Position numbers and translations under genes: made by a program. 44,563 bases of DNA from Escherichia phage vB-Eco-KMB14. The stretch lies in the sequence record OR424384.1; one strand, 5' to 3'. Each line of letters begins with the position of its first letter. The stretch's first letter is position 1. Positions 6,253 to 19,881 of the stretch are shown here, piece by piece. The notes beneath the pieces were generated by a model. It was not told where the DNA came from, ran no database searches, and worked only from the letters and a program-made list of their open reading frames with translations.

Positions 6253-8241
6253 ATGGCTATTATTCAGAATGTACCGTGTCCTGCTTGCCAAAAGAACGGA
6301 CATGATATTACTGGCAATCATTTAATGATCTTTGACGACGGGGCAGGGTACTGTAACCGTGGTCACTTCCATGATAACGGTAAACCTTATTACCACAAGC
6401 CGGAAGGTGGCATCGAGATAACCGAGTTACCTATTACTGGCAATATCAAATATACACCTTCTCAATTCAAAGAAATGGAGAAGGAAGGGAAGATAAGCGA
6501 CCCTAAGCTACGCGCCATCGCACTTGGTGGTATGCGTATGAAAGACCGTTGGGAGGTTATGAATGAGCAAGAAAGGGCAGACCAAGAAGCAGAGTGGAAA
6601 CTTGATGTTGAATGGTTTCTCACGCTTAAGCGTAAGAACCTTGTATCCCGTCACATTCGAGGTGACATCGCAGCAATGTACGATGTGCGCGTTGGACACG
6701 ATGAAGAGGGAAGAGTCAACCGTCACTATTATCCACGATATGAAAAGGGTGTGTTTGTTGGAGCAAAATGCCGGACGTTGCCGAAGGATTTTAAGTTCGG
6801 ACACCTAGGTAAACTCTTTGGTATGCAAGACCTTTTCGGTATGAACACTTTGTCTCACGTGTTAGACAAGGGGAGACGAAAGGATTGCTTGCTTATTGTA
6901 GGCGGTGAACTTGATGCACTAGCAGCGCAGCAGATGCTCCTTGATTCTGCCAAAGGTACTAAGTGGGAAGGTCAGCCATACCATGTATGGTCTGTCAATA
7001 AAGGTGAGTCTTGCCTTGAAGAGATAGTGCAAAACCGTGAGCACATAGCCCAATTCAAGAAGATTATATGGGGCTTTGATGGCGACGAGGTGGGGCAGAA
7101 GCAGAACCAACAAGCTGCTCGCCTGTTTCCTGGCAAATCCTACATCCTCGAATATCCATCTGGTTGCAAAGATGCTAACAAGGCATTGATGGCTGGCAAG
7201 GCTAAAGAGTTTGTAGATGCATGGTTTAATGCCAAGTCATCTGATGAAGTCTTTGGTAGCCAGATTAAATCTATCGCATCTCAAAGGGATAAGCTCAAGG
7301 CTGCACGTCCAGAGCAAGGACTATCATGGCCTTGGCCTAAGCTGAACAAGGTAACGCTAGGTATTCGTAAGAACCAACTTATCATTGTAGGCGCAGGCTC
7401 TGGTGTAGGTAAGACTGAGTTCCTTCGTGAAGTAGTTAAGCACCTCATTGAAGAACACGGTGAATCTGTAGGCATCATTTCTACAGAAGACCCGATGGTC
7501 AAGGTGTCCCGTGCTTTTATCGGCAAGTGGATTGATAAGCGTATTGAGTTACCGCCAACCAACGACCCGAAAGAAGATGGATACCGTGAGGTGTTCGACT
7601 ACACCGAGGAAGAGGCTAACGCCGCCATTGATTATGTAGCTGATACAGGTAAGCTGTTTGTAGCTGACCTAGAGGGTGACTATTCGATGGAAAAGGTAGA
7701 GCAAACTTGCCTAGAGTTTGAGGCTATGGGCATTTCTAATATCATCATTGATAACTTAACGGGGATTAAATTAGATGAGCGTGCTTTTGGTGGGAAGGTT
7801 GGTGCACTTGATGAATGCGTCAAGCGGATTGGTACTATCAAAGACCGACACCCGGTTACTATATTCCTTGTATCACACCTTACACGTCCTCCGGCAAACC
7901 GTACCCAACACGAAGAAGGTGGCGAGGTTATCCTTTCTGACTTCCGAGGTTCAGGCGCTATCGGATTCTGGGCATCTTACGCCTTGGGGATTGAGCGTAA
8001 TACAAGAGCTGAAACGCTTGATGAACGGACTACCACGTACATCTCATGTGTCAAAGACCGCGACCAAGGTATCTACACTGGAACCAAGGTCATGCTTAAG
8101 GGTGACATTCAAACCGGACGTTTAATGGAACCACAAGCCCGTACTAAGTCATTTGATACAGGTGAAGCAAGGCAACAAGAAGTGCCGGATTTACCGGACA
8201 CTATAGAAGAGACAACTTTTGACGATGAACAGGAGTTTTAA
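6253..8241 (+). CDS. DNA primase/helicase (T7 gp4-like, 662 aa) with acidic C-terminal tail ending in Phe
   Basis: N-terminal Cys4 zinc ribbon (CPACQ...CNRGH), Walker A GAGSGVGKT, C-terminus ...TTFDDEQEF. Confidence 0.95.
   Translation: MAIIQNVPCPACQKNGHDITGNHLMIFDDGAGYCNRGHFHDNGKPYYHKPEGGIEITELPITGNIKYTPSQFKEMEKEGKISDPKLRAIALGGMRMKDRWEVMNEQERADQEAEWKLDVEWFLTLKRKNLVSRHIRGDIAAMYDVRVGHDEEGRVNRHYYPRYEKGVFVGAKCRTLPKDFKFGHLGKLFGMQDLFGMNTLSHVLDKGRRKDCLLIVGGELDALAAQQMLLDSAKGTKWEGQPYHVWSVNKGESCLEEIVQNREHIAQFKKIIWGFDGDEVGQKQNQQAARLFPGKSYILEYPSGCKDANKALMAGKAKEFVDAWFNAKSSDEVFGSQIKSIASQRDKLKAARPEQGLSWPWPKLNKVTLGIRKNQLIIVGAGSGVGKTEFLREVVKHLIEEHGESVGIISTEDPMVKVSRAFIGKWIDKRIELPPTNDPKEDGYREVFDYTEEEANAAIDYVADTGKLFVADLEGDYSMEKVEQTCLEFEAMGISNIIIDNLTGIKLDERAFGGKVGALDECVKRIGTIKDRHPVTIFLVSHLTRPPANRTQHEEGGEVILSDFRGSGAIGFWASYALGIERNTRAETLDERTTTYISCVKDRDQGIYTGTKVMLKGDIQTGRLMEPQARTKSFDTGEARQQEVPDLPDTIEETTFDDEQEF
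8189..8209 (+). promoter_or_regulatory. Phage-RNAP promoter embedded in the 3' end of the primase/helicase gene
   Basis: ATTTACCGGACACTATAGAAG consensus match. Confidence 0.5.
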
Positions 8242-8402
8242 TGGAAATTATTAAACCAGTATTGAATATCGGTATTGAGATCCTATTCATGCTTGTGATC
8301 GCAGATTATGCTGCACGATATGGCTTCAAGAAAGCAGTGAAACTTATCGTTGCATCTGGTTTTATGATGTCAATGTTCTTTATTGTAACACGCCTTATCT
8401 AG
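8241..8402 (+). CDS. Small hydrophobic membrane protein (53 aa), not in the ORF track
   Basis: ATG overlaps the primase stop; RBS aggag; translation MEIIKPVLNIGIEILFMLVIADYAARYGFKKAVKLIVASGFMMSMFFIVTRLI. Confidence 0.45.
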   Translation: MEIIKPVLNIGIEILFMLVIADYAARYGFKKAVKLIVASGFMMSMFFIVTRLI

Positions 8403-8415
8403 TGTATTTATCAGG

Positions 8416-8446
8416 GCTTGTCTCACATGTGAGACAGGCTCTTATT
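8416..8446 (+). terminator. Conserved palindrome hairpin (GTCTCACATGTGAGAC core) followed by a T-rich tract
   Basis: gcttgtctcacatgtgagacaggc then tcttatt; one of seven copies of the same palindrome. Confidence 0.45.
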
Positions 8447-8474
8447 AAGTACATTAAATAACTGGAGATTGATT

Positions 8475-9158
8475 ATGTATAAATTAGTATTGAATGTAGG
8501 TGATTATGTTCGTAACATCAATGAAGCCTCACGTCGTTATCGTTGCCGTGGTGTAGTGGCTCGTGTAAGTGAGAACATGTATCATGTAGAATATGATGAT
8601 GGTATTAAGGCTTCTTATCACAAGAAAACCGCACATAAATATCTTGAAAAGGTTGTAGAGGTAAACAATCAATGTAAGTGCATACATGATGAGGTTTGCG
8701 ATAAATGTGCTCGCCAGATGCTTAAGAATTTCCTAGCCCCTCTTTATTATGGTGCTGGTCCTCAAACACTAGCAGAGTACATGGCAGAAAAGAAAACCAC
8801 ACTCAAGAAAGAGCGTCGCAATGTAATCACTGGTAAGACTCAAAGTGAGATGATTAAGCAATGTGGCACTGCATTAGGTGTTACACAGTTCAATACTCGT
8901 GCATTGGGTAAATCCACAGGGCAAGCTATGGTGAAAATTGGTGAAGCTATGATGCACCCAAATGTGCCTGTGCGAATCTTGGATGTTGACCATGCAATCA
9001 CAGAGCATGGCACACCACGGCGTGTAGCTAATAATCATTTCGCCGACACTATAGAAGGTATTATTCGTAAGCAAGGGTTGAAGGGTCTTCACATCTTAAA
9101 TGGTGAAGAATTACTGTACCTACCTATCGTTACTGAAGAAACATACGTGAATATCTAA
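8475..9158 (+). CDS. Hypothetical protein (227 aa)
   Basis: ATG at 8475 follows RBS ggag; the ORF-track start at 8469 is TTG. Confidence 0.7.
   Translation: MYKLVLNVGDYVRNINEASRRYRCRGVVARVSENMYHVEYDDGIKASYHKKTAHKYLEKVVEVNNQCKCIHDEVCDKCARQMLKNFLAPLYYGAGPQTLAEYMAEKKTTLKKERRNVITGKTQSEMIKQCGTALGVTQFNTRALGKSTGQAMVKIGEAMMHPNVPVRILDVDHAITEHGTPRRVANNHFADTIEGIIRKQGLKGLHILNGEELLYLPIVTEETYVNI
9037..9057 (+). promoter_or_regulatory. Phage-RNAP promoter-like sequence inside a CDS (ATTTCGCCGACACTATAGAAG)
   Basis: Core GACACTATAGAAG conserved; upstream part diverges. Confidence 0.3.
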
Positions 9159-9168
9159 GGAGTTAATC

Positions 9169-9387
9169 ATGACTAAGGTATTAATTTATATGCGTGGACC
9201 TCATAAATGCTATGCAGTTGTAGCACCAAATGGCGTTAAGCCTTATCGTACTTCAAAAAGATTGGCATTAATAGGTGCTAGTAGTAGTGCAAGTTTCCAA
9301 ATGGAACTTTTTGGTCATTGGACTGAAAGGCAATTCCGTGAGGATTTTAAAGTCATTGGCAGTTTCATGGTGAAATATGCAGAATAA
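9169..9387 (+). CDS. Hypothetical protein (72 aa)
   Basis: RBS aaggag 7 nt upstream of the ATG. Confidence 0.6.
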   Translation: MTKVLIYMRGPHKCYAVVAPNGVKPYRTSKRLALIGASSSASFQMELFGHWTERQFREDFKVIGSFMVKYAE

Positions 9388-9553
9388 ACATAGTCTTAGA
9401 ATGTTCGATGGTCATGAAGACCTGCAAGCCAAGATTACTAACCAAGCCTTCCTGTTCGCACAGTTAACTATGGCTGAGGCCAAGAAGAATAGTCTCACTC
9501 GTGAACAGGTTATCAAGGAAAGTGAAGTGAAACGTAAGATTCGCAGTCGATAA
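9377..9553 (+). CDS. Small hypothetical protein (58 aa), not in the ORF track
   Basis: ATG overlaps the end of the preceding ORF; the ORF ends just before a terminator-like hairpin. Confidence 0.35.
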   Translation: MQNKHSLRMFDGHEDLQAKITNQAFLFAQLTMAEAKKNSLTREQVIKESEVKRKIRSR

Positions 9554-9560
9554 GTCAAGG

Positions 9561-9590
9561 GTTGTCTCACGTGTGAGACAGCCTTTTATC
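9561..9590 (+). terminator. Conserved palindrome hairpin (GTCTCACGTGTGAGAC) plus T-run; rho-independent terminator-like
   Basis: gttgtctcacgtgtgagacagcc followed by ttttatc. Confidence 0.5.
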
Positions 9591-9610
9591 ATGTTGATTG
9601 GAGGTGCATT

Positions 9611-9718
9611 ATGCCACGTGATTATGATTCTGATTGGGACTACTATGACTCAATGAATCCAAAACCAGAACGTTCAGATGATTACTACGAAACAGAGGCA
9701 ATGTATGAAAACTATTAA
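9611..9718 (+). CDS. Small acidic hypothetical protein (35 aa), not in the ORF track
   Basis: Strong RBS ggagg 6 nt upstream; translation MPRDYDSDWDYYDSMNPKPERSDDYYETEAMYENY. Confidence 0.4.
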   Translation: MPRDYDSDWDYYDSMNPKPERSDDYYETEAMYENY

Positions 9719-9923
9719 AGTCAGTAAGGTTTGCTCTTGCGGTAAAGGTTATCGCAGTCGTATTGATGGTAAGTGTGGACATTGTAGGTCTAAGAAAGAG
9801 GCTGCTTTGTTTGACAAGTACCACAATGAATTAGCCTATAACTACCCACATCTAACACCTAATTCTTTATTAGGGCTTGGTTATAGGGCTAAATACTTTG
9901 GAGCAATCTATGAAATCAATTGA
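9705..9923 (+). CDS. Small zinc-ribbon protein (72 aa; CxC...CxxC)
   Basis: ATG at 9705 overlaps the upstream ORF; translation contains CSCGKG...CGHC. The ORF-track start at 9678 is probably an extension. Confidence 0.5.
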   Translation: MKTIKVSKVCSCGKGYRSRIDGKCGHCRSKKEAALFDKYHNELAYNYPHLTPNSLLGLGYRAKYFGAIYEIN

Positions 9924-12456
9924 TTGGAAGAAGGAGGCAGAAGGTCGTATCCTCGTGATGGATGCGGAAGCTAAAGGACTCCTTGACGCTATCCGATATG
10001 GACACCGTGAAGATGTGCATATCATTTGCTGCATGGATTTGCTTACTACCGAGGAGTTTCTCTTCTTTGACCCGTATGAGATGCGTGACCCTGAAGCAAG
10101 AGAACGCCTGAAGGAATGGGAAGGTCATCAAGATGGAACCTTGGTTGACGGTGTTAACTTCCTGAAGCACTGTGAGGCTATTGTGTCGCAGAACTTCCTA
10201 GGGTATGACGGTCTTCTCTTTGAGAAAGCATTCCCTGATATTTGGAAAGGCTTTAACTATACCGAGAAGCGCGGTAAGGGCAGACTCCGTGCTGACCTGT
10301 GTCCGGTGCGAGTCATGGATACGCTGGTGATGAGTCGCCTGTTAAACCCCGATAGACGCCTTCCTCCGCAAGCATATGCCAAAGGTATGGGTAACGTCGC
10401 CCCTCACTCAATTGAGGCGCACGGCATCCGTATAGGTCGCTATAAACCGGAGAACGAGGACTGGTCTAAACTAACTGACCACATGGTTCACCGTGTACGT
10501 GAGGACGTGGCGATTGGTCGTGACTTGTTCCTCTGGCTCTTTAACGGGGAATGGATGGAGCACAAACGCCGTGGCGTGAATAAACGCACGGGCCTAGGCA
10601 TTGAGACAGCCTTCCACATGGAGTCCATTGTGGCGCTGGAGATGAGCCGTCAGGCCGAGCGCGGGTTCCGTCTGGACATCGACAAGGCTTTGGCCCGATG
10701 CGAAGAATTGGACGCTAAGATTGATGAGACAGTCGCAGCGTTCCGCCCTCACATGCCTATGCGTATCAAGTCTAAACCTTTTAAACCGGAAGAAAAGAAT
10801 GAAGTATGCCAACGCGCAAATGAGTATGGAGCTAGCAACAATATACCTACTGTCCTTGACCCCTCACACTTTCTTCATGCCGAGAGACGAGGAGATCGCA
10901 AGACAGTATGGAGTGTCACTACTAAGTCTGGTGATTGGTCGGCTAGTGTCAAGAAAGACTTTCCTCACCTTAGAGGAAACCGTAATGACACGCCAAGTAT
11001 CAAGTGGATTGGTGCTTACTCGCCTGTTACTTTCGAAGAGATTCCCTTGGGTAACAGGGATACAGTTAAGCAAGTGCTCTATGATTATGGATGGAAAGGT
11101 GTTGAATTTAACGATACCGAGCAAGCGCATCTCGATGAGTATGGCGTATTACCAAAACCTTGGAGTGGAAAGATAAATGAAAAGTCTCTTACTTTATGGC
11201 AAGAGAGAGCCGCACGTGAAGGTAAAACAGTACCCGATTGGTGCTTGGGTATCGCTGCATGGTACATACTCGTATCCCGTCGTGGTCAGATACTCAACCG
11301 TGGTGACGTTGAAGCCTTCAACGAGAAGGGAACGTGGCCCTCGCAGGCTGGTGTACGAAAGTGTCGCGGCCTTGTACCTGTAGCATTCAACAAGGAGCTA
11401 GGAATCAATGCGCAGCAATACTACGAAAGGTACGGATGCTGGCCTACGTCAGACAAGGATGACGGGGAGTGGCGTGTTCCAGCTGTTGCTATTAGCATTG
11501 GCACTTCTACGTTCCGTATGCGTCATCGTAACGTGGTTAATATTCCTGCCCGTGGCTTGTATCCTTTACGTGATTTATTCATAGCAGGTAAAGGCAAGCT
11601 AATCCTTGGTTGTGACGGTGCAGGTCTTGAACTGCGCGTCCTGTCTCACTTCATGAATGACCCTGAGTACCAAGAGATTGTATTGCATGGTGACATCCAT
11701 ACACATAACCAGATGAAGGCTGGTCTTCCTAAGCGTGACATGGCGAAGACGTTTATATACGCTTTCCTCTATGGCTCTGGTATAGCTAACCTTGCAGCAG
11801 TCTGCGGTGTTACTGAGGAAGAAATGAAGGAAGTTGTGGCAAGATTCGAGATTGAACTACCGTCTCTTGCACGTCTTCGTGAGAATGTTATCGCACAAGG
11901 TAACAAGTTTGGCTACCTGCAAGCACCTGATGGGCATTGGGGTCGCATCCGCATGTCTGGTGGTGAACTTAAAGAGCACACGATGCTTAACGTATTACTC
12001 CAGATGACTGGCTCTTTGTGTATGAAATATGCATTAGTCAAGGCATTTGCAGTAATGCGCAAGGAAGGTGTAGCTTTGGATGCTATGGGAAATCCTTGTG
12101 GTGTGGCTAACGTGCATGATGAAATCCAGATGGAAGTTCCTGAAGAGGAGGTCTTGTATCTTAACTACGACCTACCTTTCACCTTAGATGGGTTCGAAAC
12201 AGAGAAGGCTGCTGTGAAAGCAGTTTTCGATGCAGAGGAGAAACGTGTTCATGTGGATTCTGAAGGACGTATGTGGTCTGCTGCAAACCTCGTTAGCGTT
12301 GATGCTGATGCTGGTGTATTGCATTGCCAGCGCCGTTATCACCGTGCAGGTCATATCATTGCCGACGCCATGACTTGGGCAGGGCAGTATCTGAAGATGC
12401 GTTGCCCGATGGCAGGCGAATATAAGATTGGCGCAAGTTGGAAGGAAACACACTGA
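9910..12456 (+). CDS. Family A DNA polymerase (848 aa)
   Basis: Motif A DGAGLELRVL, motif B KRDMAKTFIYAFLYGSG, motif C VHDE. ATG at 9910 follows RBS ggag; the ORF-track start at 9877 is TTG. Confidence 0.95.
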   Translation: MKSIDWKKEAEGRILVMDAEAKGLLDAIRYGHREDVHIICCMDLLTTEEFLFFDPYEMRDPEARERLKEWEGHQDGTLVDGVNFLKHCEAIVSQNFLGYDGLLFEKAFPDIWKGFNYTEKRGKGRLRADLCPVRVMDTLVMSRLLNPDRRLPPQAYAKGMGNVAPHSIEAHGIRIGRYKPENEDWSKLTDHMVHRVREDVAIGRDLFLWLFNGEWMEHKRRGVNKRTGLGIETAFHMESIVALEMSRQAERGFRLDIDKALARCEELDAKIDETVAAFRPHMPMRIKSKPFKPEEKNEVCQRANEYGASNNIPTVLDPSHFLHAERRGDRKTVWSVTTKSGDWSASVKKDFPHLRGNRNDTPSIKWIGAYSPVTFEEIPLGNRDTVKQVLYDYGWKGVEFNDTEQAHLDEYGVLPKPWSGKINEKSLTLWQERAAREGKTVPDWCLGIAAWYILVSRRGQILNRGDVEAFNEKGTWPSQAGVRKCRGLVPVAFNKELGINAQQYYERYGCWPTSDKDDGEWRVPAVAISIGTSTFRMRHRNVVNIPARGLYPLRDLFIAGKGKLILGCDGAGLELRVLSHFMNDPEYQEIVLHGDIHTHNQMKAGLPKRDMAKTFIYAFLYGSGIANLAAVCGVTEEEMKEVVARFEIELPSLARLRENVIAQGNKFGYLQAPDGHWGRIRMSGGELKEHTMLNVLLQMTGSLCMKYALVKAFAVMRKEGVALDAMGNPCGVANVHDEIQMEVPEEEVLYLNYDLPFTLDGFETEKAAVKAVFDAEEKRVHVDSEGRMWSAANLVSVDADAGVLHCQRRYHRAGHIIADAMTWAGQYLKMRCPMAGEYKIGASWKETH

Positions 12457-12572
12457 TGGATAGGCTTGACATTGTTTACCTATTCTTCACTTTCTTTCTT
12501 GTATTTCTTATGATTGCTTGTTACGGAAGTATGCAGGTAAATATACCTGATGAAGAGGAAGGATACGACTGA
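12456..12572 (+). CDS. Small membrane protein (38 aa), not in the ORF track
   Basis: ATG overlaps the DNAP stop (tgATGg); hydrophobic core IVYLFFTFFLVFLMIACYG. Confidence 0.35.
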   Translation: MDRLDIVYLFFTFFLVFLMIACYGSMQVNIPDEEEGYD

Positions 12573-12630
12573 GTTATACTCAAGGTCACTTACGAGTGGC
12601 CTTTATGGATAACTTAACTAAGGAAATATT

Positions 12631-12891
12631 ATGATTAAATACACTGCTTATCAGTTAACTAAAGACCATAAGATAGGTATTGAGGTTAAGGCTTGGGAGC
12701 GAGGTCATATCTCTGGAGTAATAGAGGTGCGTTCCAAGGAAGGTATGATGATTAGAAGACACTTTAGTTTCGCTAAATCTACTTGTAAGCATTTAACAGA
12801 GGAACAATTCTTACATCATATTATTAACAATATTAAAGCTATCCAGCCTTATGCCAAGCAAGTTGTAGGTAATGTCACAGTAGTACATTGA
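12631..12891 (+). CDS. Hypothetical protein (86 aa)
   Basis: RBS aaggaa; its last 21 nt are part of the duplicated 105-bp unit. Confidence 0.6.
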   Translation: MIKYTAYQLTKDHKIGIEVKAWERGHISGVIEVRSKEGMMIRRHFSFAKSTCKHLTEEQFLHHIINNIKAIQPYAKQVVGNVTVVH

Positions 12892-12911
12892 TTTACTGGA
12901 CACTATAGAAG
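12891..12911 (+). promoter_or_regulatory. Phage-RNAP promoter (ATTTACTGGACACTATAGAAG), copy 1 of the duplicated unit
   Basis: Exact consensus. Confidence 0.7.
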
Positions 12912-13082
12912 GAAAGCCTAGATAATCTAGGTTTATAAGGTAGTATAGGTAATTAAGTAAATATAGGAGATATAAGCTATAGGTTCTGCCGTTATGGCTG
13001 GTATGTCTTCTATTGGTAGTATGTTTACAGGCAGCGGCTGCTGCACCGCTGCCTGTAAACATAATGTCACAGTAGTACATTG

Positions 13083-13103
13083 ATTTACTGGACACTATAG
13101 AAG
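13083..13103 (+). promoter_or_regulatory. Phage-RNAP promoter, copy 2 of the duplicated unit, driving the 13170 gene
   Basis: Exact consensus; followed by the leader and RBS ataggaga. Confidence 0.7.
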
Positions 13104-13169
13104 GAAAGCCTAGATAATCTAGGTTTATAAGGTAGTATAGGTAATTAAGTAAATATAGGAGATATAAAC

Positions 13170-13547
13170 ATGTCTATGGTAACTACTCTGGTATTTGTAG
13201 CTCAATACTTTCGTGGTCTGGCTAATAAGTTCAAGTCCAAGGCTATCAAAGCTATTGAGTCTCGCATCGAGGCAGTCCAGGCAGAGCAAGTTAAAGTTGA
13301 AGAACATCGTAGTTCTCAAATGATTGACTGCCACAATCGCTACTATGCATCTCGTGATGAACTGAATGCTCGTCAAGTCAAAGAGGTTGAAGAGATGCTG
13401 GCACGTCACCAGCAAGAGCGCGACAGCCTGAAAGCTGAATTTGAAGAGAACAAGGCATCCATCGCCCTTGTACATCAAGCCGCATCTGACAGCCTGAAGA
13501 AAGAGATTGTTATGCTGGAGATTGAGTTAGACAATCTTACCAAATAA
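13170..13547 (+). CDS. Hypothetical coiled-coil protein (125 aa)
   Basis: RBS aggaga; charged heptad-like sequence. Confidence 0.65.
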   Translation: MSMVTTLVFVAQYFRGLANKFKSKAIKAIESRIEAVQAEQVKVEEHRSSQMIDCHNRYYASRDELNARQVKEVEEMLARHQQERDSLKAEFEENKASIALVHQAASDSLKKEIVMLEIELDNLTK

Positions 13548-13566
13548 TTACTGGACACTATAGAAC
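13546..13566 (+). promoter_or_regulatory. Phage-RNAP promoter variant (AATTACTGGACACTATAGAAC)
   Basis: Consensus match with A at -16 and C at +6; overlaps the 3' end of the upstream ORF. Confidence 0.5.
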
Positions 13567-13709
13567 AATAGGTCGGCTTAGTTCGGCCTATGATTGTAAA
13601 GTGTTGAACCTTATTGTGCATCTTGCACAACCCGATGCTATATCGGGCTTTCTAGTGAGTACATGCTTGTGCTCAGTACAAAGCTAACTGACAATAGGAG
13701 ACTAAATAA

Positions 13710-14516
13710 ATGGCACGTGGTGATTTTGATTTTGGTGCTCAGGTTACTAAGGCTGAAGGTAAAGTATTTAAGAACCCTGAAGTTGGTGATCATGAAGCAG
13801 TAATCTCTGGCATCATTCATGTTGGTTCCTTCCAAGATATTTTTAAGAAAGGTAATACCACTGAGGTTAAGAAGCCAGCAAACTTTGTTCTTGTTAAGAT
13901 TATCCTGATGGGTGACGACGACAAGAATGAAGATGATTCTCGCATGGAACAGTGGATGGCTGTGCCTCTGAAGTCTGGTGACAAGGCAACCTTGACTAAG
14001 TTCCTGAATGCAGTTGACCCTAAAGAGCTGCTTGGTGGTTTCGATGACTTCATCGGTGAATGCCTGACTGCAACTATGGTTGGCTCTGGCGACAAGAATG
14101 ATGATGGTACTTTCAAGTATGTTAACTGGAAAGGCTTTGGCGGTATGCCTGATAAGTTGAAGAAGCTTGTACTGGCTCAGGTAGAAGAGGAAGGTCTGTC
14201 TATGACAGGTCATATCACCTTCGACAAGCTGACCAAAGAAATCCTTGATGACATCCCAGCTAACTTGGTGCGTCAATACTTCCTTAATGAAACACCTCGT
14301 GGTAAGAACCTGTCTGTTGCTGGTTCTCACGTAGAAGCAATCATTAAAGCTGCTCGTGAAGAAGACCCAGAGTGGAAGAAAGCCAAGAAGAAAGATGACG
14401 AGGATGCTACTCCAGCTAATCGTAAATCTCTGGATACTGGTGAGTCTGTTCCACAGGAAGTACCTGAAGCAGAAGATACTCCTGCACCGGAGATGGATGA
14501 GGACGCGGAATATTAA
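13710..14516 (+). CDS. Putative ssDNA-binding protein (gp2.5-like; 268 aa) with acidic C-terminal tail ending in Tyr
   Basis: Sits in the replication module with RBS aggag; C-terminus ...EDTPAPEMDEDAEY resembles the acidic, aromatic-terminated tail of T7 gp2.5. Overall similarity was not verified. Confidence 0.5.
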   Translation: MARGDFDFGAQVTKAEGKVFKNPEVGDHEAVISGIIHVGSFQDIFKKGNTTEVKKPANFVLVKIILMGDDDKNEDDSRMEQWMAVPLKSGDKATLTKFLNAVDPKELLGGFDDFIGECLTATMVGSGDKNDDGTFKYVNWKGFGGMPDKLKKLVLAQVEEEGLSMTGHITFDKLTKEILDDIPANLVRQYFLNETPRGKNLSVAGSHVEAIIKAAREEDPEWKKAKKKDDEDATPANRKSLDTGESVPQEVPEAEDTPAPEMDEDAEY

Positions 14517-14525
14517 GGAGAAAGG

Positions 14526-14744
14526 ATGAAAGTACAAATCGTAACCCTGTACTGCAAGAAAGGTATCACAACGCTCGGAGGTAGCACTTTCCACTCTTTC
14601 TCCGAAGGGGAGATTTATGCTGACCTGCACTACATCTGGCGCGACGGACAGCACGTGGTGAACTACAGCGACCCAGCTACGGGGAAACGCCACGGCGTAT
14701 CGCTTCCGGCGCATGACATTGCTCAGGTGAACACAGTTTTATAA
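14526..14744 (+). CDS. Hypothetical protein (72 aa)
   Basis: RBS aaggag 6 nt upstream; followed by the palindrome hairpin at 14746-14761. Confidence 0.55.
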   Translation: MKVQIVTLYCKKGITTLGGSTFHSFSEGEIYADLHYIWRDGQHVVNYSDPATGKRHGVSLPAHDIAQVNTVL

Positions 14745-14776
14745 AGTCTCACGTGTGAGACAAATCGGTGTCCGGT

Positions 14777-14797
14777 ATTTACTGGACACTATAGAAG
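14777..14797 (+). promoter_or_regulatory. Phage-RNAP promoter (ATTTACTGGACACTATAGAAG)
   Basis: Exact consensus, immediately downstream of the palindrome hairpin. Confidence 0.7.
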
Positions 14798-14849
14798 AGA
14801 AGAATTTTAATCGGCGATAATGCCATAATCAACAAAAGGAGAATTTAAT

Positions 14850-15221
14850 ATGTTCAAGATTGAAACTATCGTAAACCGTGTTGTTAAAGGTGCTGCTCTG
14901 GTATCCGTTGAGTCTTTCATTATCGTCGATGAAGCTGATCAACTGGTAGCTGGTACTAAGGCTTACGATACCCGTGAAGAAGCTCAGGCTAAGATTGACA
15001 GCATGGGTAACTTCGCTGCTGGTCTGGAGTTCGCTCGTGCTTGCTTCCCTGAGCAGGCTGACAAAGCTCAGATTGGTAAGGCTAATATCGTAGCTGAATA
15101 TCTGGATTGGGTTGCTGCTGGTAAACCAGTGAAAGAAGTTAAGGCTGCTGAAGAAGCTGAAGCTCCAGCAGAAGAAGTAGCTGCACCGGAAACTCCGGTA
15201 AGCGAAGAGGAAGAATTTTGA
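14850..15221 (+). CDS. Hypothetical protein (123 aa) with acidic C-terminal tail ending in Phe
   Basis: Strong RBS aaaggaga; C-terminus ...APETPVSEEEEF. Confidence 0.65.
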   Translation: MFKIETIVNRVVKGAALVSVESFIIVDEADQLVAGTKAYDTREEAQAKIDSMGNFAAGLEFARACFPEQADKAQIGKANIVAEYLDWVAAGKPVKEVKAAEEAEAPAEEVAAPETPVSEEEEF

Positions 15222-15280
15222 TAATAGCAGGTGTTGCCTCTGTTAGTCCTGGTTGACTATCACGCTCACCTCATCTAATG

Positions 15281-15313
15281 CCCTGTCTGCCTTAGTGTAG
15301 GCAGGGTCTTTTG
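15281..15313 (+). terminator. Possible stem-loop plus T-run after the 14850 gene
   Basis: ctgtctgcc-ttagtgta-ggcagggtc followed by ttttg; imperfect stem. Confidence 0.3.
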
Positions 15314-15338
15314 CGTAATAGTTATTGGAGAATGAATT

Positions 15339-18576: not shown

Positions 18577-18750
18577 ATGGAAGGTAAACTGTATAGAGGG
18601 TACTTCGGTAACTTATATAAAGTAAGCTCTCGCGGTTTTGTATTGACCTCTGATGATGAAGGTGCAATGTGGCACCTAAGTGCATATGGTTCTAACTTAG
18701 CACACTTTAAAGAGGCAATAGTCAAAGGTGTGATGAAGGAGGTGAAATGA
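18577..18750 (+). CDS. Small hypothetical protein (57 aa)
   Basis: ATG at 18577 follows gaggat. Confidence 0.45.
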   Translation: MEGKLYRGYFGNLYKVSSRGFVLTSDDEGAMWHLSAYGSNLAHFKEAIVKGVMKEVK

Positions 18751-19694
18751 ACATCTTCCAATTCCTAGGTCTTCCAGAAGACCACCGCAATCATCCATTC
18801 ATGCTGGTGAAGCATCGCGGTGAAGTTCCTGAGAAGAAACTTACTTTTCCATGTTATGCACAGGTGAAACGAGATGGAATATTCAGTGCTGTTGTGGTGC
18901 GCAATGATGGTGCTGTTGCCGTCTTTGGTCGTACTGGTAAGAAGCTCGCAAATGTTGAAGCCTTGGAAAAGACATTTAGTGTATTTCCTGTCGGGTTGTA
19001 TCTTGGTGAGTTGCAATCTATGGCTGTTGATGTTTATCTTGAAGCTCTGTCAGGAGTGGTAAACCCTAATCGTACAGAGCCACTTGACTTCATAGGCCAG
19101 CAGATTAAAGACAACCTGTATATCGACTTCTTCGATATGTTAACTATTAAGGCATTCCATGATGGATTCACTGATGTTTCTTATCTCAAACGTTACGATG
19201 CTTTACATCGTCGTATCGGCACTCATCTTAGCGGGTGCAACGCTATCCTTCCTATCACTCCTTGCCATAATGAGCGAGAAGTTGAAGCGTTTGCGCAAGA
19301 GCAAATAGATGCAGGACGTGAGGGTGCTGTATTCAAACTGGACTGCGATTATGAAGCAGGACACAAAGGTTATCGTCAGACTAAAGAAGTCCGTAAGGTA
19401 ACTTATGACCTTACTTGTATTGGCTTTGAAGAAGGTAAAGGTAAATACAAAGGTAAGGTAGCTAACCTCATTTTCAAGTGGAAAGGGGGCAAGACAATCA
19501 AAGCTATGCTCGGTAAAGGGTGGACTCATGCAGATGCAGAACAGATGTTCCACGATATTAAACATGGCGGACGGTTGAATGTCATTGGTAAAATCTTTGA
19601 AGTCAAAGGTCTTCAGGATTCAAGCAAGGGCAACATTCGTCTGCCCAAAGCGGGAGAATTAAGACATGACAAAGATGAACCAGATTTCTTTTGA
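18747..19694 (+). CDS. ATP-dependent DNA ligase (315 aa)
   Basis: KxDG adenylation motif (AQVKRDGIF); strong RBS aaggaggtg; start overlaps the upstream stop. Confidence 0.85.
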   Translation: MNIFQFLGLPEDHRNHPFMLVKHRGEVPEKKLTFPCYAQVKRDGIFSAVVVRNDGAVAVFGRTGKKLANVEALEKTFSVFPVGLYLGELQSMAVDVYLEALSGVVNPNRTEPLDFIGQQIKDNLYIDFFDMLTIKAFHDGFTDVSYLKRYDALHRRIGTHLSGCNAILPITPCHNEREVEAFAQEQIDAGREGAVFKLDCDYEAGHKGYRQTKEVRKVTYDLTCIGFEEGKGKYKGKVANLIFKWKGGKTIKAMLGKGWTHADAEQMFHDIKHGGRLNVIGKIFEVKGLQDSSKGNIRLPKAGELRHDKDEPDFF

Positions 19695-19881
19695 TAGCAT
19701 GAAGGCAACTCGTGCAGTTGAGGTAGCAGAAGCTATCTTTGAAACTTTATCATGTGGCATGGAAGTGCCATATACTTTACTTGCTGATGCAGAAGAACTT
19801 GGTCTTTCTGTAGAAGCTATCCAAGAGAAGGTTGACGAATTATATGGTACAGACGAAGAAGAAACCGACGATTTCATTTGA
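19666..19881 (+). CDS. Small acidic hypothetical protein (71 aa)
   Basis: RBS gggaga upstream of the ATG. Confidence 0.5.
   Translation: MTKMNQISFDSMKATRAVEVAEAIFETLSCGMEVPYTLLADAEELGLSVEAIQEKVDELYGTDEEETDDFI

Follow-up and report, generated by a model that had tools for sequence, protein, structure and literature searches.

Acidic, aromatic-capped C-terminal tails on three replication-region proteins of a K1-5-like phage, one of them a predicted single-stranded DNA-binding protein

[quoted passage not shown] In T7, gp4 ends in ...WSNDTDF and gp2.5 in ...EADEDGDF, and both dock on the DNA polymerase gp5 (PMC8472574, PMC12339929). The negatively charged tails of the helicase contact positive patches of the polymerase, and their removal lowers processivity threefold (PMC8472574). 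The tail of gp2.5 attaches to the front basic patch, residues K587/K589/R590/R591 (PMC12339929); deletion of F232 abolishes the interaction with the polymerase and leaves binding to single-stranded DNA unimpaired (bioRxiv 10.64898/2026.02.22.705581). For the HK620 SSB, a DUF669 protein, there is experimental confirmation, and recruitment of its partner Sak4 requires the six C-terminal residues NDYPPF (PMC5928155). A further protein of interest is PrgE of plasmid pCF10, a DNA-binding protein with an oligonucleotide/oligosaccharide-binding (OB) fold and of likely phage origin, whose N-terminal tail mediates the formation of filaments on DNA. Here we analyze three such C-terminal tails in Escherichia phage vB-Eco-KMB14 (sequence record OR424384.1; the whole stretch of 44,563 nucleotides is referred to as the window). 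They belong to the primase/helicase, a 268-residue protein and a 123-residue protein, which correspond to gp9, gp16 and gp18 of phage K1-5 (gp10, gp18 and gp20 in SP6).

The window is the complete or near-complete genome (44.5 kb) of a Vectrevirus (Autographiviridae, Molineuxvirinae; K1-5/K1E/SP6 group). Between positions 13000 and 15700 it shares 99.3% identity with Escherichia phage EEc2 and ~94-95% with K1-5 and K1E. Its genes follow the order of K1-5: RNA polymerase, primase/helicase (gp9), DNA polymerase, gp15, gp16, gp17, gp18, exonuclease, endonuclease VII, further genes, ligase and then the structural genes. The homologue of the gene at 6253-8241 is annotated as primase/helicase in both K1-5 and EEc2. 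Phages of the group are in wide use: SP6 as a source of RNA polymerase, the K1-specific and Klebsiella phages in therapy. To our knowledge, the replisome of SP6/K1-5/K1E-type phages has never been worked out, and in the literature accessible to us, with the 2004 SP6 and K1-5 genome papers, which may remark on the acidic ends, outside this search, no paper names an SSB of SP6-like phages or discusses their tails.

The preliminary description of this DNA had drawn attention to three C-termini and likened them to the T7 tails. The sequences are as it gave them, ...ETTFDDEQEF for the primase/helicase, ...APEMDEDAEY for the 268-residue protein and ...PVSEEEEF for the 123-residue protein, and the T7 record bears out the comparison; it contains no other protein with an acidic, aromatic-capped tail. 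All three genes lie within the DNA-metabolism block, and the three tail segments share the same isoelectric point (pI; Table 1). When the pattern is defined as a terminal F, Y or W preceded by six residues of which three or more are D/E, and the amino-acid composition of the window is taken as the null, it is expected in 0.12-0.15 of the 44 genes; it is seen in three (P = 3e-4 to 5e-4). This loose filter is also passed by a fourth window protein, the DNA ligase, which is discussed below. Acidic C-termini are common, and other proteins of the window have them with no aromatic cap: ...SEEEEEE at 1374-1745, ...DEEEGYD at 12438-12572 and ...ETDDFI at 19666-19881. The first of these is a 123-residue early protein encoded where SP6 has a gene annotated as Ocr-like anti-restriction, and its uncapped tail makes a useful contrast. 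Such uncapped ends lend something to the view that three acidic C-termini merely happen, by coincidence or composition, to be aromatic-ended. That view is hardly credible: it is at odds with the excess over expectation and with a similarity between the helicase and gp16 tails that exceeds all 2000 shuffles (see below), and it is contradicted because the tips are conserved while the adjoining linkers vary. The tails are conserved motifs, not a product of chance or composition.

The conservation was assessed in a divergent set of nine annotated phages (K1-5, SP6, Era103 and phages of Edwardsiella, Vibrio, Pseudomonas, Marinomonas, Aeromonas and Pantoea) and 43 IMG/VR loci, which together span Molineuxvirinae, Colwellvirinae and unclassified lineages. 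In this set the helicase, the gp16-like and the gp18-like proteins carry a capped acidic tail almost everywhere, and the polymerase and the exonuclease never do. Logos built from distinct tails only (30 for the helicase, 69 for gp16) have a seven-residue motif in common, Φ(-6)-[D/S](-5)-acidic(-4)-acidic(-3)-x(-2)-E(-1)-[F/Y](0)-COOH. Registered on the last aromatic residue, every distinct tail has F or Y at position 0 (100% for each of the three proteins). In the helicase, position -1 is E in 83% of the tails, -5 is D or E in 77% and -6 is hydrophobic in 47%, with F the commonest; in gp16, -6 is M or L in 99% and -1 is E in 88% (acidic in 94%); in gp18, -2 is E in 94%, -1 is variable and -6 is hydrophobic in 65% (V or L). 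The aromatic residue is strictly terminal in most lineages, the exceptions being the Uliginvirus clade, the lineage L060 and the SP6 helicase. The last of these (L004:6472-8457) ends in ...TQEFNG, two residues past the Phe, and its closest relatives end in ...TQEF; the extra NG may be specific to the sequenced SP6 genome or strain.

Wider searches give the same picture for the two smaller proteins. An F/Y-capped acidic stretch is present in 45 of 47 database homologues of gp16, down to 33% identity, including two (P0046, P0047) with one Ser after the F; the two without it are P0040, a truncated sequence, and P0024 (...DADQVY). The linker before the gp16 tip is free to vary among these homologues. 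All of the 120 close homologues of gp18 among the matches listed end in ...EEEF. An exhaustive search of 1.8 billion cluster representatives found 26 relatives of gp18, most of which, down to ~30% identity, end in E-x-F.

The tails of the helicase and gp16 resemble each other well beyond the tip. Over the last 34 residues ARTKSFDTGEARQQEVPDLPDTIEETTFDDEQEF of the helicase aligns to ANRKSLDTGESVPQEVPEAEDT-PAPEMDEDAEY of gp16, with the consensus KS[F/L]DTGE..QEVP..DT..Φ-D-acidic-E-[F/Y]. The alignment scores 68, compared with 28.9+-5.4 in composition-preserving shuffles (z 7.2), and 0 of 2000 shuffles reach this score. At the DNA level the two tails are only ~67% identical at best, so that the likeness does not stem from a recent gene conversion. 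The [F/L]-D-T-G element is found in both tails across the Molineuxvirinae, and as F-D-x-G it is retained in the helicase of more distant lineages. The gp18 tail has weak similarity to that of the helicase (z 3.6).

Four lineages depart from the usual tail state, and each does so in several proteins at once. In L037-39 all three proteins end in Y (helicase ...SEY, gp16 ...AEY, gp18 ...EEY), and in L046 the helicase (...DSY) and gp16 (...NQNY) do; the helicase ends in F outside these two Y lineages, and gp18 ends in F outside L037-39. The Pseudomonas Uliginvirus clade (L052, L053, Ulitu01) has one or two extra residues behind the F in each of the three proteins (helicase ...ETFD/...KTFE; gp16 ...EVFE/...QTFD/...QEFGE; gp18 ...AFEG/...SFS/...ETFE), with the exception of the annotated Ulitu01 helicase, which ends in F. 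In L060, a deep branch, the helicase ends in ...DEFT and gp18 in ...GEEFE, and in gp16 ...ELDEEETF is followed by DPNDDVPF. Polymerase identities indicate that the four lineages are separate: that of L060 is 36-42% identical to all others and that of L046 42-56% (~45% to most), and identity to the window polymerase is ~52% for the Uliginvirus clade and 83% for L037. Since the tail states change in step in four lineages, they point to a common, co-evolving partner. The comparisons also indicate that selection keeps the tip of the gp18 tail, which shifts in step with those of the helicase and the SSB-like gp16. Klebsiella-phage relatives are found in both the F/Y/F and the Y/Y/Y state, and therefore host genus does not dictate the tail state; L037-39 appear to be tied to the Klebsiella phages by their near-identical gp16 tails.

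The gp16 homologue of L060 (L060:7177-7929, Logan SRR22936148 contig) has a tandem tail, the second part of which resembles the bacterial SSB tip DDDIPF. Its sequence hints at a phage SSB that gained a further docking signal of the host type. It also bears on the proposal that the tails in general mimic the host SSB tip (...DDDIPF) and recruit or soak up SSB-binding enzymes of the host, such as RecQ, ExoI, PriA or the chi subunit, with the abundant gp18 as a decoy. Acidic tails ending in Phe are the interaction code of the host SSB, the HK620 SSB uses NDYPPF likewise (PMC5928155), L060 adds its host-like ...NDDVPF after ...LDEEETF, and a decoy would have to be abundant, as gp18 seems to be. 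Nevertheless we consider this proposal quite unlikely. The tails of the window (EY, EF) lack an I/V-P-F tip, the presence of both tips in tandem in L060 suggests that they are different signals, and tail states vary among phages of one host genus. Among these gamma-proteobacterial hosts the SSB tip is in general almost invariant, and so it would not drive lineage-specific, concerted changes. As a docking system, the bacterial SSB resembles these proteins in having an acidic stretch and a C-terminal Phe on a disordered linker as docking peptide, but there one tail serves many partners, whereas here several tailed proteins apparently serve one, and the D-D-D-[I/V]-P-F tip is absent from the window and added only in the distant L060.

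For the 268-residue protein the preliminary description had suggested a comparison with SSB families. It is not a homologue of T7 gp2.5 (hhalign probability 0.09), and against an alignment of HK620-type SSBs the probability is 0.07. Searches of Pfam (0 of 30 family members), PDB-chain sequences and NCBIfam returned no significant match, and among the 30 members scanned the Pfam DUF669 family is not matched either; the NCBIfam model NF046043 (NGO0469 family 'phage replication initiation protein') gives an E value of 0.0015, far below the cutoff. PHROG 862, which contains gp16, is labeled 'unknown function', the gp18 family is also listed as unknown in PHROGs, and in phage records 40 of 40 listed entries from 215 matches to gp16 are called hypothetical or carry a gene number only, with no SSB named.

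The structure prediction is more informative. An AlphaFold2 model built on a 30-sequence alignment (mean predicted local distance difference test, pLDDT, 80) consists of a flexible N-terminus, a barrel of five strands and the usual helix (residues 26-144), a domain of helices (148-230) and, with pLDDT < 50 at residues 230-257, a disordered tail. The predicted fold is that of an OB-fold, SSB-type protein. In the model the OB domain is most similar in fold to PrgE and to phage SSBs of the DUF669 type, which are its closest structures, and not to T7 gp2.5. A Foldseek search against predicted viral structures gave 75 matches at E<=1e-3, mostly uncharacterised podovirus proteins, some of them named 'DUF669 domain-containing'. 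The N-terminus, which ranks with the most strongly conserved stretches of the family, reads MARxFDFGAxV..GG (residues 1-18, 13710-13760), with M1, F6, G9, A10 and G17 invariant and pLDDT ~44. [quoted passage not shown]

Judging from the model, gp16 is most likely the phage's own SSB, of the PrgE/DUF669 kind and an analogue, not a homologue, of gp2.5. Three features fit this assignment, namely the tip in L060 that resembles the host SSB, a phage promoter of its own and a high codon optimality of 0.64 (median 0.51); codon optimality is here the fraction of E. coli-preferred codons, for which we used what we take to be the list of E. coli optimal codons. Like the HK620 SSB, which recruits its partner by F-ended last six residues, gp16 ends in an aromatic residue, and like PrgE it has an N-terminal tail, conserved as MARxFDFGA and predicted to be flexible. 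It differs from these proteins in the lack of detectable kinship at the sequence level (none in Pfam; 0.07 in hhalign) and in an extra helical domain of ~80 residues, and from the HK620 SSB in a tip of xEY versus YPPF and in having no Sak4 neighbour.

The 123-residue protein, gp18, was described as small, strongly expressed and of unknown function, and its sequence agrees with this on each count, with its own promoter, ribosome-binding site, terminator and codons as expression signals. The gene stands alone between a consensus phage promoter, whose core has 15 matches in the window against 1.5 expected, and a strong terminator (hairpin 15280-15307, -18.3 kcal/mol, z -3.6). Its codon optimality of 0.77 is the maximum of the window; the major capsid gene has 0.70. 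The predicted structure (pLDDT 82) has a beta-hairpin, three helices and a disordered tail (pLDDT ~50 at residues 100-123), and a fold search of the PDB gave no convincing match. Neither PDB chains, Pfam and NCBIfam nor any of the small T7 proteins gives a significant match (hhalign probability 2.2 or less against T7), and the N-terminal half gives sub-threshold signals only, for DUF1508/YegP (UPF0339). Residues K37, G58, K77, N79, A82, W87 and G91 are near-invariant and A45 and A78 invariant. The family is confined to the RNA-polymerase-encoding podoviruses of this group, where gp18 invariably has the gp16 homologue on one side and the exonuclease gene on the other; even at 33% identity the order DNA polymerase, gp16, gp18, exonuclease is retained. 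Among the most distant relatives the context can be read in one of four, L060, with the same synteny. In the most divergent loci shortened relatives of 84-100 residues occupy the same slot and mostly end in ...ADEDF or ...EAETF.

If the tails have a common receptor, the DNA polymerase is most likely the partner, by analogy with T7 and because its gene is conserved together with the others; the DNA-binding cleft of gp16 and the helicase are alternative candidates. The polymerase is 35% identical to T7 gp5 over the palm and fingers, but the docking sites known from T7 are not conserved. The T7 front basic patch loop QWVAGEQQVKWKRRW appears in the multiple alignment as a T7-specific insertion, and at its position SP6-type polymerases read QGNKFGYLQAPDGHW, with a net charge of -2 to +2. 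In the thumb, where T7 has its thioredoxin-binding domain, these polymerases have an insertion with a few conserved R/K residues; the motifs R-x-G-K/D-R/K..W and VKKxFPxxxGNxNDT can be read off the alignment. The open reading frame (ORF) of the window polymerase starts mechanically at a TTG (9877-9915; 859 residues), and the equivalent of the ATG used in K1-5 and EEc2 lies at 9916 (846-848 residues).

The comparison with T7 has two sides. Both systems have a homologous primase/helicase and a family A polymerase, an SSB gene with its own phage promoter, and a helicase and an SSB that each end in a disordered, acidic, aromatic-capped tail; for these two proteins the analogy holds, and in each case the two tails share a tip of their lineage, D-x-D-F in T7 and x-E-[F/Y] here. 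In contrast to T7, the predicted SSB of this group is no homologue of gp2.5, the polymerase is without the front basic patch loop and has a thumb insertion of hardly any basic character, the tails of the helicase and the SSB are alike over 34 residues, including the [F/L]DTG element, and there is a third tailed and highly expressed protein, gp18, with no T7 counterpart.

On balance we lean, by a little, towards the explanation that the three tails are a shared docking motif for one phage-encoded receptor surface, most likely on the polymerase, with gp18 as a third client. The tails would be copies of one short linear motif at the end of a disordered acidic linker, carried by the hexameric primase/helicase, the gp16-like SSB and the small, abundant accessory protein gp18. 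All three would bind the same surface of a phage-encoded receptor that co-evolves with them; by analogy with T7 this surface would most likely be on the DNA polymerase, possibly in the thumb insertion. Helicase and SSB would thereby be kept at the fork, where their hand-over would take place, and gp18, using the same tag, would either join the replisome or compete for the site. The common binding site, its location on the polymerase and the role of gp18 are what we infer from these patterns, and to regard gp18 as a replisome component or a competitor is a guess.

Several observations weigh against a shared receptor. Only four lineages display concerted change, and a rough, hand-calculated Fisher test gives p ~0.025 per protein pair under our own grouping into ~16 lineages, uncorrected for phylogeny. 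The SP6 helicase (...QEFNG) has two residues after its F, and gp16 and gp18 of SP6 do not. The thumb insertion is weakly basic, with a net charge of -1 to +4 compared with +10 in T7, and the front patch residues K587/K589/R590/R591 are without a counterpart in the MAFFT alignment. With a pI of 4.7, the folded part of gp18 is slightly acidic and offers no clue to a function. The tip of gp18 is in another register (E at -2, variable -1) than those of the helicase and gp16 (x at -2, E at -1), and the gp16 and gp18 tails are alike in composition only (z 0.8).

These last two points also favor a reading in which each tail acts within its own protein and the likeness is convergent: the gp16 tail would cover its own DNA-binding cleft, in the way reported for the tail of T7 gp2.5, the helicase would behave as in T7, and gp18 would be an abundant host-takeover protein unconnected with the replisome. 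The tail of the E. coli SSB, too, folds back (discussed in PMC5928155). For a takeover protein, gp18 is suitably placed directly upstream of the exonuclease gene, as are T7 5.5/5.7/5.9, and its codon optimality, higher than that of the capsid gene, would suit the titration of an abundant target. Yet such self-contained tails give no account of why the gp18 tail shifts with those of the helicase and gp16 in L037-39, Uliginvirus and L060, and they leave the strict terminal aromatic of gp18 unexplained. Moreover, gp18 matches no T7 protein, and its acidic body offers no obvious basic cleft to its own tail. We therefore hold this reading to be unlikely, and prefer the shared docking motif.

A bolder form of the shared docking motif would make gp18 a new kind of replisome regulator, produced in capsid-like amounts and occupying the shared docking site on the polymerase. 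It would then be either a processivity or adaptor factor in place of host thioredoxin, or a competitor that times the hand-over between helicase and SSB. We give this form little chance; if true, the SP6/K1-5 group would run a three-client tail code on a polymerase without the docking patch known from T7.

Since the docking principle is already established, the part concerning the helicase and the SSB is a new instance of a known mechanism. What differs is an unannotated, predicted SSB of another structural family, the extended similarity between two tails, the missing T7 patch and a highly expressed third carrier. The outcome is a likely SSB and a testable docking code for SP6/K1-5-type phages. 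The tail principle of T7 would hold despite a different SSB family and a missing polymerase patch, and the group would offer a natural experiment on the co-evolution of tails and receptor. In gp18 it has a conserved and apparently very abundant third tail-bearing protein.

The ATP-dependent DNA ligase (18747-19694) was considered as a fourth member and rejected. It ends in ...RHDKDEPDFF, and in 10 of 10 annotated or reference genomes the ligase ends in D-[F/Y] or D-[F/V]-F. The R-x-D-K near its end is presumably ligase motif VI, and the tail extends only 4-6 residues beyond. In several loci the end is no longer aromatic (DADA, PDVQ, ADV, SDVA), the lineage-specific changes seen in the other three proteins have no parallel in the ligase, and the T7 ligase has no such end. 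It was not counted because its end is short after motif VI, often non-aromatic, outside the concerted changes and absent from T7.

Table 1. Positions of the tail-bearing proteins, the candidate receptor and their signals in the window.
Feature	Position	Strand	Support
Primase/helicase (K1-5 gp9 / SP6 gp10 homologue), 662 aa	6253..8241	+	PHROG 239 E 1.8e-186; Pfam DnaB_C, Toprim_2
Primase/helicase C-terminal tail, residues 621-662, pI 4.05; tip FDDEQEF 8218-8238	8113..8238	+	sequence, logo
Family A DNA polymerase, 846 aa from K1-5 ATG, candidate tail receptor	9916..12456	+	Pfam DNA_pol_A
Polymerase thumb insertion, ~100 aa, position of T7 thioredoxin-binding domain	10740..11030	+	MAFFT with T7 gp5 and 8 relatives
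Phage promoter upstream of 268-aa gene	13546..13568	+	core match TACTGGACACTATAG at 13549-13563
gp16-like protein (K1-5 gp16 / SP6 gp18), 268 aa, predicted SSB-type OB-fold	13710..14516	+	
gp16-like disordered acidic tail, residues 231-268, pI 4.05; tip MDEDAEY 14493-14513	14400..14513	+	pLDDT, logo
Phage promoter dedicated to 123-aa gene	14777..14799	+	ATTTACTGGACACTATAGAAGAG, one of 15 core matches
Ribosome-binding site AAGGAG, 8 nt before ATG of 123-aa gene	14836..14841	+	sequence
gp18-like protein (K1-5 gp18 / SP6 gp20), 123 aa, beta-hairpin and three helices	14850..15221	+	
gp18-like disordered A/E/P-rich tail, residues 93-123, pI 4.05; tip VSEEEEF 15198-15218	15126..15218	+	pLDDT ~50, logo
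Intrinsic terminator directly after 123-aa gene	15280..15315	+	11-bp G+C-rich stem and T run

The region between the polymerase and gp18 has further features of its own. A perfect direct repeat of 106 nucleotides (12870-12975 and 13062-13167, spacing 192 nucleotides) lies just upstream of a gene for a 125-residue protein that starts at 13170. In each copy there is a promoter core of the phage type (at 12894 and 13086) as well as a small hairpin (CCTAGATTATCTAGG); counted together with the promoters at 13549 and 14780, this gives four phage promoters in ~2 kb. The 125-residue protein (13170-13547), whose gene has its own promoter and a codon optimality of 0.62, is labeled 'polysaccharide chain length determinant protein' by RefSeq and PHROG 7450; Pfam gives only weak matches of coiled-coil type, and the name looks like an annotation carry-over. 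Between the gp16-like and gp18-like genes lies gp17 (14526-14744, 72 residues, codon optimality 0.63), which belongs to PHROG 5791 of unknown function and is kept in close relatives; distant relatives have other small ORFs instead.

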